This document shows, piece after piece, positions 13,121-45,277 of a stretch of 46,259 nt of DNA. Both the position numbers and the translations under genes were made by a program. The notes beneath the pieces were generated by a model. It saw nothing but the letters and a program-made list of their open reading frames with translations, was not told where the DNA came from and made no database searches. Position 1 is the stretch's first letter, and each line of letters begins with the position of its first letter. Source of the DNA: Candidatus Nomurabacteria bacterium (GTDB taxonomy: Bacteria > Patescibacteriota > Minisyncoccia > Phycocordibacterales > UBA9973); NCBI GenBank assembly GCA_903862255.1, contig CAIOXK010000024.1, positions 1 to 46,259 of the forward strand, in the 5' to 3' direction.

Positions 13121-13147
13121 AACAATAGGGGTTTAACCCCTGTTATT
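13121..13147. repeat. REP-like hairpin, left copy (AGGGGTTTAACCCCT); also acts as terminator of the transposase-like gene
   Basis: aacaatAGGGG-TTTAA-CCCCTgttat. On the minus strand the hairpin is followed by TTTTATAC. Confidence 0.8.
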
Positions 13148-13797
13148 TAATTCTTGCCAAGTAATCTATATCTTTTCTTATTATTTTTTACTTCTTCTAA
13201 AACCTGGTATGCATATTTTTTATATTCATCTTTAGTCTCAAACTGTTGCAATATAAGACTATGTTTAGTGCAAATACTTCTACCTTGATACTTATAGTCA
13301 ACATACTGACTCCAGCTTGAATAATATTTATAATTAATCGGGGTTAAACCCCTATTGTTTTCCTGATCATCATTTAAGTTAATATACCCAGAAACATACA
13401 ATAAATATTCATTTGTGTTTACATGTTTCGATTTATAGGTAGCCTCAAATAGCGCACCAGATCGTTCATTTTTATTGTTTAAATATAATGTATAACCACC
13501 CTGTAGTCGCTTCATAAACTCACTTATTCCACCATCAACTTCTTGCTGTATCAAAAAATGAAAATGGTTTGGCTGTAATGAATATGCAAGAAAACTCACT
13601 AACGGATTTTTAATAGCAAAACCATTAAGTCGTATTTGCTTATTAAGGCTTTCAACTGGCTCAATATTATTAAATACTATCAATGCGTCGCTAAATCTTT
13701 GTATATCTAAAAAGTCTAAAAAAATATCTCTCTTATCTACACCTCTGTTGTAAATATGATATATCTCTCCAGTAGTAATATTTTTTGGCTTCCTCAT
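13147..13797 (-). CDS. IS200/RAYT-like HUH-Y1 (tyrosine) transposase family protein
   Basis: GEIYHIYNRGVDKRDIFLD, HUH motif PNHFHFLI, and a C-terminal Tyr in YVSGYINLN..YYSSWSQY. I place the start at ATG 13797; the track start at 13803 is a TTG. Confidence 0.8.
   Translation of the reverse strand: MRKPKNITTGEIYHIYNRGVDKRDIFLDFLDIQRFSDALIVFNNIEPVESLNKQIRLNGFAIKNPLVSFLAYSLQPNHFHFLIQQEVDGGISEFMKRLQGGYTLYLNNKNERSGALFEATYKSKHVNTNEYLLYVSGYINLNDDQENNRGLTPINYKYYSSWSQYVDYKYQGRSICTKHSLILQQFETKDEYKKYAYQVLEEVKNNKKRYRLLGKN
13340..13359. repeat. REP-like hairpin, internal inverted copy inside the transposase-like ORF
   Basis: GGGGTTAAACCCCTATTGTT is the exact reverse complement (20/20) of 13121-13140. 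It is read in frame as NNRGLTPI. Confidence 0.85.
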
Positions 13798-13851
13798 GTG
13801 CAAAATACTGTAACAAATTATCTTTCAAGTTTTTCTTGATAATAAATAAAA

Positions 13852-13875
13852 ACAAAGGGGTTTAACCCCTTTGTT
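13852..13875. terminator. REP-like hairpin, right copy; intrinsic terminator of uvrA
   Basis: Perfect 10-bp stem AACAAAGGGG-TTTAA-CCCCTTTGTT, followed by T-rich tracts on both strands. Confidence 0.8.
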
Positions 13876-24739: not shown

Positions 24740-24768
24740 TTGCCAAATAAGGTTATAAATGCTATGTT
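24740..24768 (+). promoter_or_regulatory. Candidate rpsB promoter TTGCCA-17-TGcTATGTT, giving a leader of about 170 nt
   Basis: ccTTGCCAaataaggttataaaTGcTATGTTtatgg. It lies back to back with the divergent promoter at 24701-24729. Confidence 0.45.
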
Positions 24769-24887
24769 TATGGCTCATCACCGCCTTCGTTTTTAGGAAC
24801 TTCGGCGCGTTAAAAGATGAAATTATTCAGTAAACCTACTAAGAAAAAGTAGGCCCTTATTAACGTAAGGGTAAGGTTCTTACTGTT

Positions 24888-24915
24888 ATCCCACTTCGCT
24901 AAAGCTACGCGGGAC
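24888..24915 (+). repeat. 28-nt element, copy A (ATCCCACTTCGCTAAAGCTACGCGGGAC), in the rpsB 5' leader
   Basis: 27/28 identical to the reverse complement of 44945-44972. Confidence 0.85.
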
Positions 24916-24944
24916 GACAGATAAAGAATCTGTCGCAGATTGTT

Positions 24945-25616
24945 ATGAAAACTATTGACCCTAAAGTCCTCATGGAGGCAGGTGTCCATTATGGATACTC
25001 ACGTACTCGCCGTCACCCTACTGTTACTAAGTTCATTTACGGAACAAAAGATAAGGTAGACATTATTGACCTCGAAAAAACTGTTCCTCAAATGGAGGCT
25101 GCAGTTAACTTCTTAAAAGGACTTGCTGCATCTGGCAAGACAGTGCTATTCGTTGGTGTTAAACCAGAATCACGTGGCGCAGTACAAGAAGTTGCCGCTC
25201 TATTAAAACAGCCATATGTTACAGAACGTTGGATTGGCGGTATGCTCACAAACTTTACTGAAATCAAGCGCCGTATCAACAAACTTGAAGATATGCGTGA
25301 AAAGACAGCTTCTGGCGAACTTGCTAAGTTCACAAAAAAAGAACAGCTCCTTATGAGTCGCGAAATCGAACGTTTGAACAAATACTTTAGTGGTTTGGTT
25401 GGAGTAACTAAACTCCCTGACGCATTGGTTATTATTGACTCAAAGAAAGAACATATCGCTGTTGCAGAAGCTCGTAAGAGTAATATTCCAATGATCACTA
25501 TCGGTAATACTGACTGTTCTATTCGCGCTATTGAATACCCTATCATTGCTAATGACAGTTCTGCTTCATCAATTAATGCAATTCTTGGTATACTTAAAGA
25601 CGCATTTCAGCAATAA
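24945..25616 (+). CDS. rpsB: 30S ribosomal protein S2
   Basis: LMEAGVHYGYSRTRRHPTVTKFIYG.. Confidence 0.95.
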   Translation: MKTIDPKVLMEAGVHYGYSRTRRHPTVTKFIYGTKDKVDIIDLEKTVPQMEAAVNFLKGLAASGKTVLFVGVKPESRGAVQEVAALLKQPYVTERWIGGMLTNFTEIKRRINKLEDMREKTASGELAKFTKKEQLLMSREIERLNKYFSGLVGVTKLPDALVIIDSKKEHIAVAEARKSNIPMITIGNTDCSIRAIEYPIIANDSSASSINAILGILKDAFQQ

Positions 25617-26440: not shown

Positions 26441-26907
26441 TGATCCTGACACTTGTTATTATTCTTATCGTGCTCATCGTAGCGCTTTGGATAAGCGCCA
26501 TGCTGCTTTGGTGGCGCAGTGAACAAGTTGTACCAATTAAACCCATCAAATCTGATGACGTTGTCAATGTATGGAATAAAGCCACTCGTTTGATGCGACG
26601 TAGTTGGTATAGCGGTGTACGCTACAGCAAACAAGGAGCACTCTGGGGGAATAAGAAAGCACGCAACGCATTCATTACCCTCTTCCCTAAATCTAAGCCA
26701 GCATTTATTGAAAAAGATATGCTGACAGGACTTGAACACGGACCTTCATCATATTTCCTAGCCAATCTTTCCCCCGCCTCCGGTAAACCTACGGCGCGGC
26801 GAAGCAAACCTGCTGCAAGAGCCGTAGCTATGAAAATCCCTGCTGGACGAAAAAAGGTGGTAGAAATCGATAGTATTTCCAACGATCTGCAGGATTTGTC
26901 AGATTAA
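26440..26907 (+). CDS. Hypothetical membrane-anchored basic protein
   Basis: 155 aa. The start overlaps the tsf stop (TAATG). N-terminal TM MILTLVIILIVLIVALWISAMLLWW. Confidence 0.55.
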   Translation: MILTLVIILIVLIVALWISAMLLWWRSEQVVPIKPIKSDDVVNVWNKATRLMRRSWYSGVRYSKQGALWGNKKARNAFITLFPKSKPAFIEKDMLTGLEHGPSSYFLANLSPASGKPTARRSKPAARAVAMKIPAGRKKVVEIDSISNDLQDLSD

Positions 26908-31923: not shown

Positions 31924-31936
31924 GGGGACTGTCCCC
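31924..31936. repeat. GGGG-ACTGT-CCCC hairpin, intergenic copy
   Basis: The 16-mer GGGGACTGTCCCCTTT is identical to 43600-43615 inside trmD. Confidence 0.8.
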
Positions 31937-32005: not shown

Positions 32006-33382
32006 CTAGTCGAAATAGTTTCGGAGGCGCTGAATGCGATCATTCTGACGGAGCTTCTCGTGAACCTTGGCTTCGATTTGTCGAATACGTTCACGAGTCA
32101 CGCCGAACTCCTTACCTACTTCTTCAAGCGTGTGCTGTACACCATCGATGAGTCCGTAGCGCATTTCAAGAATTCTTTTTTCCTTAGGAGAAAGTTCTTC
32201 TAGAACAGCACGGATTGCATCCTGAAGCATACGGCGACTTGCCTCTTGATCTGGGCGAAGAATCTTATCGTCAGGAATAAATTCACCGAATGTAGACTTG
32301 TCTTCATCGTCACCGATTGGAGATTCCAATGAACGAGTTTCTTGATTGATCTGTTCAATCACATGAACCTTTTCAACTTCAATACCCATTTCCATTGCAA
32401 TTTCTTCTGGCATGGGATCACGGCCGAGGTCTTGTGCCAAACGACGCATTACCTGTTTGTATTTTGAAATAGTTTCAACCATGTGCACCGGGATACGGAT
32501 AGTGCGTGATTGGTCTGCCAGTGCACGAGTGATTGACTGACGGATCCACCATGTTGCATATGTTGAGAATTTAAATCCTTTTGTGTAGTCGAATTTTTCT
32601 ACAGCCTTGAAGAGGCCGATGTTCCCTTCTTGAATCAAATCGAGCAATGTAAGGTCTGCTGTACGATTTGCATATTTCTTGGCAATTGAAACTACCAAGC
32701 GGAGGTTTGATCGAGCGAGCAAGTTCTTTGCTTCTCCATCACCTGCAGCAATACGTTTCGCAAATTCTTTTTCTTGAGCAGCATTGATCAATGGATACTG
32801 ACCAATGTCTTTCAAGTACATTTGCACAGAACTGAAACTGTGACTATCTTTTACATATTTTGAAAGGTCTTCTGTATTATCAATATCAAGAAGATTGCCA
32901 CCTTCTAGAATATCAATACCTGCAACACTGAACTTCTCATACAGTTCATCGAGGAACATAATGTTATTTTCAATGTCAGGAAATGTTTTTAAAATCTCAT
33001 CATACGTAATGAATCCGCGTTTCTTACCTTTTGTGATAAGTTCTTCGGACTTTAATTCCATGTCTTTGATTTTCTTTTCACTATTGTTTTCACGCTTTGG
33101 CGCTGAGCCAGCGTGACGAATAGTAATCGGCTTTGGTTTTGCCTTGACTACCGTAGCTTTGGCGGAAGAGGTGCTTTTAGGTGTTACAACTTTTTTTACA
33201 GGCGCTTTCGCGACTGCTTTGGCAGTTACTTTTTTAACGGGTACTTTTTTTGGAGCTGGTTTTGCTGCACTCTTTGGTGCCACTTTTTTTGCTACCTTTT
33301 TTGTCGGCGCTGGTGCGCCTTTTTTAACTACTTTCTTCGGTTGTGCTTTTGGAGCTGGTTTTTTGTTTGGCATAAAGTTCAT
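32006..33382 (-). CDS. rpoD: Primary sigma factor (sigma-70 family) with a Lys/Ala/Pro-rich basic N-terminal extension
   Basis: Regions 1.2 to 4.2 are present ([63 protein letters not shown]). The start is ambiguous among ATGs 33394, 33391, 33382 and 33373; the first two overlap the -10 box. Confidence 0.9.
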
Positions 33383-43115: not shown

Positions 43116-43850
43116 TTATATGTCAAAATTTTTTTGGTTTTTACGCCACTCTTCAATCTTCTTATGATCTCCTGAGATCAATACCGGTGGTACAGCGTAT
43201 TTTTTAGGTTTAACTATTTTTGTAGTCTTGCCTGATTTTGCGGATGTGGGCGTGCCCCGCATAGTTTTGGCGGAGTGGGGCCATACAAGAACCTCTGGAC
43301 GAGTAAATACGCGAGGACTAGCATTTCGCAACTCCTCTACTGATTCGTGTGTGCCAAGTACTCCGGGGATCTGACGACAAATAGCATCTGTCATAACCAA
43401 TGCTGGCAATTCACCTCCTGTTAATACAAAGTCACCGATTGATACTTCTTCCGCTTTCAAGATAGTTCGTACGCGATCATCTACTCCTTCATACCTTCCA
43501 CATATAAACACAACATCACTATATGATTTCGCCCATTTTGCCGCCATGGTATTGGTAAACATGGCACCAGTCGGCGAAAGCATTACTACTTTTACCTTAG
43601 GGGACTGTCCCCTTTTTAAAGATAATTTCAATTTATTATAGGCACGTAGAATTGGCTCTGGTGTCATAACCATTCCTGGACCACCGCCATATGGGCGTTC
43701 ATCAACTTTCTTATGTTTATCCAGCGTATAATCACGGATATTTTTCACATCAAAAGACACGAGCTTCTTTTCAGATGCGCGCCTCAACATTGCTTCGCTG
43801 AGATAGCTTTCGATCATCTCTGGGAAAATTGTTAGAAAGTGAAATTTCAT
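43116..43850 (-). CDS. trmD: tRNA (guanine37-N1)-methyltransferase
   Basis: ERPYGGGPGMVM, ICGRYEGVDDRV, SIGDFVLTGGELPALVMTDA. Carries an insertion of about 25 aa before VPPVLISGDH. Confidence 0.93.
   Translation of the reverse strand: MKFHFLTIFPEMIESYLSEAMLRRASEKKLVSFDVKNIRDYTLDKHKKVDERPYGGGPGMVMTPEPILRAYNKLKLSLKRGQSPKVKVVMLSPTGAMFTNTMAAKWAKSYSDVVFICGRYEGVDDRVRTILKAEEVSIGDFVLTGGELPALVMTDAICRQIPGVLGTHESVEELRNASPRVFTRPEVLVWPHSAKTMRGTPTSAKSGKTTKIVKPKKYAVPPVLISGDHKKIEEWRKNQKNFDI
43600..43612. repeat. GGGG-ACTGT-CCCC hairpin inside the trmD coding sequence
   Basis: Read on the minus strand as K-R-G-Q-S-P-K. The 16-mer is identical to 31924-31939. Confidence 0.8.
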
Positions 43851-44821: not shown

Positions 44822-44892
44822 ATAAGGTATAGAGATTAGCTGATAACGCACCATAAGGTACTGCTTTTATAATAACATAAAGAAAATCTAAA

Positions 44893-44925
44893 CAAAAAGA
44901 CCAACATCGAATGTTGGCCTTTTTG
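44893..44925 (-). terminator. Hairpin/terminator between rpsP and the KH gene
   Basis: The minus strand reads AAAAAGGCCAACATtcgATGTTGGTCTTTTTGTTT. Confidence 0.7.
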
Positions 44926-44944
44926 TGAAGTATTTTTGGGACGT

Positions 44945-44972
44945 GTCCCGCGAAGCTTTAGCGAAGTGGGAT
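44945..44972 (-). repeat. 28-nt element, copy B (minus strand ATCCCACTTCGCTAAAGCTTCGCGGGAC), abutting the rpsP stop codon
   Basis: 27/28 identical to 24888-24915. Its 3' GGGAC pairs with the following GTCCC (GGGAC-ac-GTCCC). Confidence 0.85.
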
Positions 44973-45277
44973 TATTTCTTCTTAGCGTCTTTACGCTTTG
45001 GAGTAGGAGATTTCTTTGAAAGTACGTTTTTTGCACGTCCTTCAACAATTCCTTGCTTCACAAGCATATTGTGAGCAGTGTCAGAAACCTGAGCGCCATT
45101 TGCAATCCAGTGAGTAATGCGTTCTTTCTTAAGAGTCACAGCATCATTTTTCAGAGTGTATGAACCAAGGATTTCCAAGAACTTACCACTTTGTGGCCCG
45201 TTTTTAGAGTCCGTCACTACTAGTCGGAATGCTGCTTCATTTTTGCGCCCAATGCGCTGTAGTCGAATCTTTAACAT
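44972..45277 (-). CDS. rpsP: 30S ribosomal protein S16
   Basis: MLKIRLQRIGRKNEAAFRLVVTDSKN.. Confidence 0.95.
   Translation of the reverse strand: MLKIRLQRIGRKNEAAFRLVVTDSKNGPQSGKFLEILGSYTLKNDAVTLKKERITHWIANGAQVSDTAHNMLVKQGIVEGRAKNVLSKKSPTPKRKDAKKK

Follow-up and report, generated by a model that had tools for sequence, protein, structure and literature searches.

Several described systems resemble, each in part, the short repeat analysed here. Rickettsia palindromic elements (RPE) are about 100-150 bp long and are known only from Rickettsia. Like our element, they are palindromic and sit in frame in the housekeeping genes of a reduced genome, where translation turns them into additional surface segments that orthologues do not have. 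Our element differs from them in being 30 nt long and in crossing phyla, the comparison being one of habit and length only. The REP/REPIN systems, mobilised by RAYT (TnpA_REP, HUH Y1) transposases, offer a closer parallel: there too, a GC-rich imperfect palindrome of 20-40 nt is dispersed in tens of copies, is overrepresented behind stop codons and in intergenic DNA, has some copies within replication and repair genes, leaves clean empty sites without target duplication, and shares its genome with RAYT-like genes. The survey by Di Nocera et al. (2013; PMC3733652) describes GTAG- and CGTC-tagged REP superfamilies, and REPs that are sometimes intragenic, notably in replication and repair genes.

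Other systems are further away. One copy of the element lies within an rpsB 5' leader, which recalls the S2 leader of the rpsB-tsf operon in Gammaproteobacteria, but unlike the autoregulatory leaders of ribosomal protein operons the element is neither conserved at its locus nor specific to it, and it has no Rfam match. It is unlike a MITE in that no flank is duplicated at pairs of filled and empty sites, and its arms recur no more commonly than in shuffled sequence. DNA uptake sequences occur about once per kb as a fixed short word, whereas the element is a hairpin with variable arms and has a density of about one copy per 16 kb in its host genome.

That host (G000) is a member of the Patescibacteria with a genome of 0.67 Mb (670 kb) and 39% GC. 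The window, by which we mean the whole stretch of 46,259 nucleotides analysed, contains two near-identical 28-mers, one ahead of rpsB and the other behind rpsP, for which a first-pass annotation had proposed three candidate roles: a shared autoregulatory site for ribosomal proteins, an RNase processing signal, or a dispersed repeat family. We conclude, with a probability of roughly 0.78, that they are two members of a REP-like, probably mobile family of palindromic repeats, and that they are passengers at both ribosomal protein loci. Mobility is deduced from insertion polymorphism and from the existence of subfamilies with common stems.

Two copies at ribosomal protein loci

The 28-mer ATCCCACTTCGCTAAAGCTACGCGGGAC (copy A) is matched at 27 of 28 positions by copy B, the one difference being A to T at position 20. 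Both positions were confirmed. In 100 dinucleotide-preserving shuffles the expectation for a second match was 0, and the initial view that the repetition exceeds chance stands. The features of the two loci are as follows.

24888-24915, plus strand: copy A of the hairpin repeat, with stem TCCCAC/GCGGGA and loop TTCGCTAAAGCTAC; covariance model (CM) R1 score 40.9 bits, E=1.3e-8.
44945-44972, minus strand: copy B of the hairpin repeat, following the rpsP stop codon and ahead of an intrinsic-terminator-like hairpin; CM score 41 bits.
24740-24768, plus strand: promoter-like site of the rpsB-tsf operon, TTGCCA-17-TATGTT, a block kept in relatives, upstream of copy A, which sets the extent of the leader.
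44892-44926, minus strand: 16-bp intrinsic-terminator-like hairpin 3' of copy B, a separate feature outside the repeat.

Pfam matches (Ribosomal_S2, EF-Ts, Ribosomal_S16, a KhpA-type KH protein, and TrmD) agree with the gene identities assigned at first reading. Copy A ends 30 nt before the ATG of the Ribosomal_S2 gene (24945-25616; Pfam E=1.6e-71), within an rpsB 5' leader of about 170 nt. Copy B begins with the last base of the TAA codon of the Ribosomal_S16 gene (44972-45277), and the KhpA-type KH gene lies 3' of both copy B and the terminator-like hairpin. Both copies do run in the sense orientation within ribosomal protein transcripts, and the internal direct repeat CTTCGC...CT(A/T)CGC and the downstream hairpins CGACAGAT-aaaga-ATCTGTCG and GGGAC-ac-GTCCC are also present as described. 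The last of these, a hairpin of the GGGGACWGTCCCC type, overlaps the 3' arm of copy B. Folded as sense RNA, copies A and B reach -6.3 kcal/mol (z -0.9 and -1.4, respectively), with an A.C mismatch in the stem, while the opposite strand reaches about -13 kcal/mol (z -3.5 and -3.9).

Anatomy of the hairpin

The element can be written as Y-CC-NN-C / TTCGCTAAAGCTAC / G-NN-GG-R followed by a CAAG tail, which makes about 30 nt, or ten codons. An outer stem of 6-7 bp carries a 14-nt apical part that is kept from copy to copy and is closed by a 2-bp helix and a YRAA tetraloop; on the opposite strand, the loop core reads GCGAAG/GTAGC and the tail CTTG. This architecture departs from that of REPs in two ways. 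It is the loop that is conserved and not the stem, and neither GTAG nor CGTC is present as a terminal tag, the conserved unpaired tail being CAAG (CTTG on the opposite strand) and GTAG occurring within the loop on the reverse strand.

The stem is maintained by covariation. Within the genome, stem cells are paired in 80.6% of cases against 63.6% after shuffling, with 26 double changes against 8.6 (0/500 shuffles). Across phyla, the pairs -1/+1, N4/N23 and N5/N22 form in 133, 103 and 114 of 145 sequences, the corresponding shuffle means being 97, 54 and 72. In the inner helix, made of a G-C and an N-N pair, pair 17-22 varies as CG, AU and UA. In the 145 cross-phylum copies the helix stops exactly at the Y/R pair -1/+1 and is followed by the C-A-R-G tail, and a flank profile of 120 copies retains only Y at -1 and R-C-A-R-G at +1 to +5. 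The rival stem CTTCGC/GCGAAG was rejected, as it does not covary. Because the covarying positions are first and second positions of different codons, coding cannot account for their covariation.

Two further structural proposals were rejected. A U8-A19 pair inside the loop is formed in just 12 of 31 sequences. A stem derived from the target, or a target-site duplication, was also considered: downstream recurrences of the 5' arm number 8, where shuffles give 2.8 on average and 9 at most, and the excess is not significant. Single recurrences of an arm, as at C26:833 or in TCCCA...TCCCA at copy B, may be due to chance.

Number and placement of copies in the host genome

The family has 10 copies in the host genome by fuzzy search, 33 by nhmmer profile and 43 by covariance model R1, the low-score end of the CM set possibly including a few Ala-rich coding false positives such as C6:6828. 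With 33-43 copies, the third of the roles first proposed, a dispersed repeat family, is borne out. At least 90% of the copies lie at non-ribosomal loci. Long ORFs contain 28 of the 42 listed CM matches, so that the element, unlike REPs, is not predominantly extragenic. The other 14 are intergenic, a 3.6-fold enrichment (p=1.5e-5) given that about 9% of the genome is non-coding. Around 8 intergenic copies are sense to their neighbours and around 5 antisense; three of them (copy B, C12:18043 and C36:5897) come after a stop codon and before a terminator. Gene context had been put forward as a test of a regulatory role, and it speaks against one, the copies occurring in unrelated gene types and the intergenic ones in both orientations.

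Among the proteins encoded by the hosting ORFs are IleRS, RNase H, FtsK, an amidase, a XerC-like recombinase, ParB, the delta' subunit of pol III, RpoD, RecA, RecJ, TsaD (with two copies), TrmD and L23. Within them the copies are placed in inter-domain linkers, N- or C-terminal tails and low-complexity regions. About 24 of the 28 ORF copies in the CM set are sense and in a single frame, as are 19 of the 22 coding copies in the nhmmer set (p=2.5e-9 against 1/4), and the translated frame reads x-[SD]-[FSD]-A-[KE]-A-[TM]-x-[GD]-[EK]. Three diverged copies of this kind are found in the window.

43255-43280, minus strand: diverged family copy, in frame in trmD (PHSAKTMRG); CM score 37.6 bits.
33147-33172, minus strand: diverged family copy, read in frame near the N terminus of rpoD (Sigma70 domains), within a low-complexity region; CM score 37.3 bits.
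26773-26799, plus strand: diverged family copy, in the reading frame of an ORF 3' of tsf that encodes a membrane protein of 155 aa; 25.2 bits, against 20.8 bits for the orthologue in the nearest relative.

The strong bias toward one frame is what would be expected if selection acted on the protein, with SxFAKATxG as a useful peptide motif and the non-coding copies as decayed or accidental ones. We consider such a protein-level module highly improbable, as the non-coding copies are the best conserved, the covariation of the stem has no coding explanation, the insertions in linkers and tails are missing from orthologues, and most copies in large genomes are intergenic. The frame bias is read here as a property of where a REP-like repeat can persist.

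Three observations can be added on the surroundings of copies and hosting genes. At C19:8861-8943 an inverted pair of family copies, with 3 nt between them, stands immediately 5' of a tRNA gene (spacer CGAA), and in another genome (L119) the order is element, GACGAA, tRNA. The IleRS-like class I aminoacyl-tRNA synthetase at C17:5767-9240 has a complete His_Phos_1 domain (aa 504-670) between its catalytic parts.

Turnover among relatives

The flanks of every copy were aligned to 774 kb of sequence from the nearest relative, G006, which has about 80-89% nucleotide identity to the host genome and whose S2 and S16 proteins are 94% and 93% identical to those of the host. Copies present in one genome and cleanly missing from the other are seen at many sites; the gaps span 21-33 nt, fall in coding and non-coding sequence alike, and have no duplicated flanks. 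The coding copies missing as gaps in G006 include the two in TsaD and those in L23, ParB, the XerC-like recombinase and PolA. Roughly 18 copies are found only in the host genome and roughly 9 only in G006, about 8-10 being common to both. At one common site the stems differ and yet are compensated (CCGGAC/GCCCGG against CCCTCC/GGCGGG). A surface position of TrmD carries a GGGGACAGTCCCC hairpin in the host (window 43599-43613) and a FAKAT-type element in G006 (C8:246120); different hairpins at the same position mark it as a recurrent landing place.

The 19 congeners have 0-43 copies each and 12 other families of the order have 0-2. Of 151 genomes sampled evenly across the phylum, 51 contain 1-18 copies.

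These results bear on a host function, by which the hairpin would be a protein binding or processing site (an RNA-stability or transcription-pausing hairpin, or a structural site in DNA) kept at many loci. The geometry of a 14-nt loop on a 7-bp stem, conserved and covarying in more than 10 phyla, would fit such a site, as would the intergenic copies located between stop codon and terminator and the roughly 3.6-fold intergenic enrichment. A range of 0-43 copies within one genus is difficult to reconcile with it, however, as are the many empty orthologous sites, the occurrence of both orientations among intergenic copies, the two thirds of copies contained in ORFs, the weak sense-strand hairpin of copies A and B, and the lack of an Rfam match. 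We hold this explanation to be unlikely, at about one chance in eight.

The REP-like reading can be put as follows. The element, which folds as DNA or RNA into a 7-bp stem, would behave as a non-autonomous mobile element of the REP type, entire hairpins being copied into new sites whose target is not duplicated. Copies would last wherever they do no harm, which includes intergenic DNA (in both orientations), untranslated leaders and trailers, the tips of hairpins, and the interior of genes. In the latter case they would survive almost only in the sense frame that gives a small hydrophilic peptide of the S-F-A-K-A-T-A-G-E type, in linkers and tails. Any effect of copies A and B on the expression of S2 or S16 would be incidental.

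The rpsB and rpsP loci in relatives

Presence in close relatives was the second test named for a regulatory role, and again its result is negative. Copy A is missing from the orthologous rpsB leader of the three closest relatives (G006, G001 and G008). Two other congeners (G002 and G003) have in that leader another family copy, with stem CCCTGC/GCAGGG, at the tip of the first hairpin. Among the relatives compared at rpsP (G006, G001, G008 and G003), only G006 has an orthologue of copy B, in the diverged form TAATCCCCACTTCGCCTAAGGGCTTCGCGGGAC; the rpsP 3' ends of the other three have ordinary terminator hairpins and no element. As copy B is present in both G000 and G006, and copy A in G000 only, B is older than the split between these genomes and A younger. 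The rpsP 3' UTR already held copy B when the host and its nearest relative separated; copy A is lineage-specific and lies in a variable part of the rpsB leader. Their 27/28 identity, which extends to an unusual stem, suggests from the sequences that A may have been copied from B or from a sibling of B.

What the genus conserves ahead of rpsB is a scaffold. It runs from the promoter TTGCCA-17-TATGTT to GGCTCATC[hairpin 1]GATGAAATTATTCAG, then to TAAGG[hairpin 2]CCT, and then to GCTACAGATTGTTATG / GCTACAGATTGT(T)ATG, and the tips of its hairpins carry assorted, species-specific GC-rich inserts (window 24740-24944; L006-L011 upstream of rpsB). The scaffold has no Rfam match. Judged by its sequence, it would be a better candidate for an S2 feedback leader than the 28-mer.

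A cis-regulatory site shared by ribosomal protein operons, whether autoregulatory or an RNase signal, had been suggested by the sense orientation of both window copies in ribosomal protein transcripts. Another copy at the 5' end of rplW, and the family copies found elsewhere in the rpsB leaders of G002 and G003, could be added in its favour. Yet G001 and G008 lack the element at both loci, G006 lacks it in the rpsB leader, and G003 lacks it at the rpsP 3' end; this absence from close relatives already largely refutes regulation of these operons. Moreover, the 33-43 copies in the genome lie mostly in unrelated ORFs, or between genes in either orientation, with at least nine in ten at non-ribosomal loci. 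What the rpsB leaders conserve is the scaffold described above and not the element, and the sense RNA of the element folds weakly, with no more stability than shuffled sequence. Both proposals fail on the same evidence, the RNase processing signal as much as the ribosomal protein site (non-specific copies, missing in relatives, weak sense RNA fold), and we give a shared site of either kind only the slightest chance of being correct. Copies A and B are better understood as members of a dispersed repeat that happened to enter two such transcripts.

Spread across phyla

The pattern CCNNCTTCGCTAAAGCTACGNNGG, in which the loop is exact and the stem bases are free, is expected to match about once by chance in the species-genome collection. 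Its matches there number at least 120 genome stretches and come from more than 10 phyla. Among the matches listed are Patescibacteria, Verrucomicrobiota, Planctomycetota, Bacteroidota, Alpha- and Gammaproteobacteria, Acidobacteriota, Nitrospirota, Elusimicrobiota, Spirochaetia and Bdellovibrionales, with two isolate genomes included. REPs, in contrast, are species- or genus-specific. The same pattern occurs in 25 viral contigs. The consensus has no match among PLSDB plasmids. Twelve genomes of other phyla contain from at least 7 to at least 97 copies each, and copies in large genomes are mostly intergenic. In Bacteroidota, Planctomycetota and Verrucomicrobiota (L065, L070, L080, L109, L117 and L134), copies are often found inside short G/T-rich tandem repeats with units such as TGGTTA, TTGGGG and AAGTCC, and there are also tandem or half-unit arrays of the element itself.

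No Rfam family matches at the gathering score, and none at E<=10 around copy A. Literature searches on the sequence, on its peptides, and on REP together with CPR found no description; the nearest was the REP survey PMC3733652, and the end tags that define REPs there are missing from this element. The 14-nt loop is kept across phyla beyond what a neutral selfish repeat would allow, which points to a sequence-specific partner or to a host function. A pan-bacterial superfamily of 30-nt (ten-codon) hairpin repeats, which keep the loop TTCGCTAAAGCTAC and the CTTG tail, is conceivable, although we rate it at somewhat less than even odds. It would imply a widespread partner enzyme that recognises the tip, would rank among the smallest mobile DNAs known, and in ultrasmall CPR genomes would repeatedly supply essential genes with new protein loops. 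Such a superfamily would be uncatalogued. Among REP-like repeats, the element stands apart in four ways: its tip is conserved, its stem covaries, it is ten codons long, and it is spread across phyla.

Candidate mobilising enzymes

Two Y1_Tnp (RAYT-like) genes are present in the host genome, at C26:37757-38299 and in the window, and four in G006. One of the two in the host matches model NF047646, for REP-associated tyrosine transposases, over its full length (E=5.5e-19), with a score under the curated cut-off.

13147-13803, minus strand: RAYT-like HUH/Y1 gene, NF047646 E=5e-5, flanked by GGGGTTWAACCCC hairpins and not by the repeat studied here.

All six RAYT-like genes, the two of the host and the four of G006, are flanked by mini-hairpins other than the 30-nt element, which is a further difference from REP/REPIN-RAYT systems: no cognate RAYT gene is flanked by the element. 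Two other families of mini-hairpins occur in the host, GGGGACWGTCCCC with 9 copies and GGGGTTWAACCCC with 10, and each of them brackets one RAYT-like gene; such hairpins lie at C26:37706-38329 and in the window at 13128-13869, 31925-31935 and 43599-43613.

Across the phylum, presence of the element is only weakly associated with presence of Y1_Tnp, at an odds ratio of 1.8 (p=0.12; these statistics ignore phylogeny). Seven of the eight phylum genomes with at least 8 copies are Y1_Tnp-positive, against a base rate of 42% (p=0.011), and within the genus the relation of copy number to Y1 gives p=0.07. Five genomes (G007, G011, G031, G042 and G116) have 16-33 copies yet no Y1_Tnp match. The link between copy number and Y1 transposase is suggestive only. 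We infer, tentatively, that the hairpins, when single-stranded, may be moved in trans by an HUH/Y1 (RAYT-like) transposase, and regard such an enzyme as the leading candidate.

A DUF559 (Vsr-like) partner was rejected, G000, G001, G006, G007 and G011 having no PF04480 match. A screen of neighbouring gene families at 145 cross-phylum loci revealed no strongly recurrent partner. A faint signal was seen at three loci (L075:5828-6400, L103:3312-3800 and L118:5374-5800), where a tRNA gene is followed by a reversed element and then by a small GIY-YIG gene, an arrangement that spans Rhizobiaceae, Rhodospirillales and Patescibacteria. In the host genome a GIY-YIG gene at C33:3247-3862 has a weak copy of the element 320 nt upstream; the GIY-YIG genes of G006 have no adjoining copy.

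Conclusion

The shared 28-mer was a false lead on the coordinated control of S2 and S16, and it is now removed. In its place is a REP-like element that about 25 housekeeping genes, in a genome of 0.67 Mb, carry and translate in frame, and that turns over between species still 80-89% identical. Its hairpin tip is common to copies from Verrucomicrobiota, Planctomycetota, Bacteroidota, Proteobacteria and other phyla. Finding its mobiliser would explain a frequent source of the spurious "hypothetical proteins" of metagenome-assembled genomes (FAKATADK, SYGGQ-type peptides), and would also explain a mechanism by which protein loops are innovated in reduced genomes.
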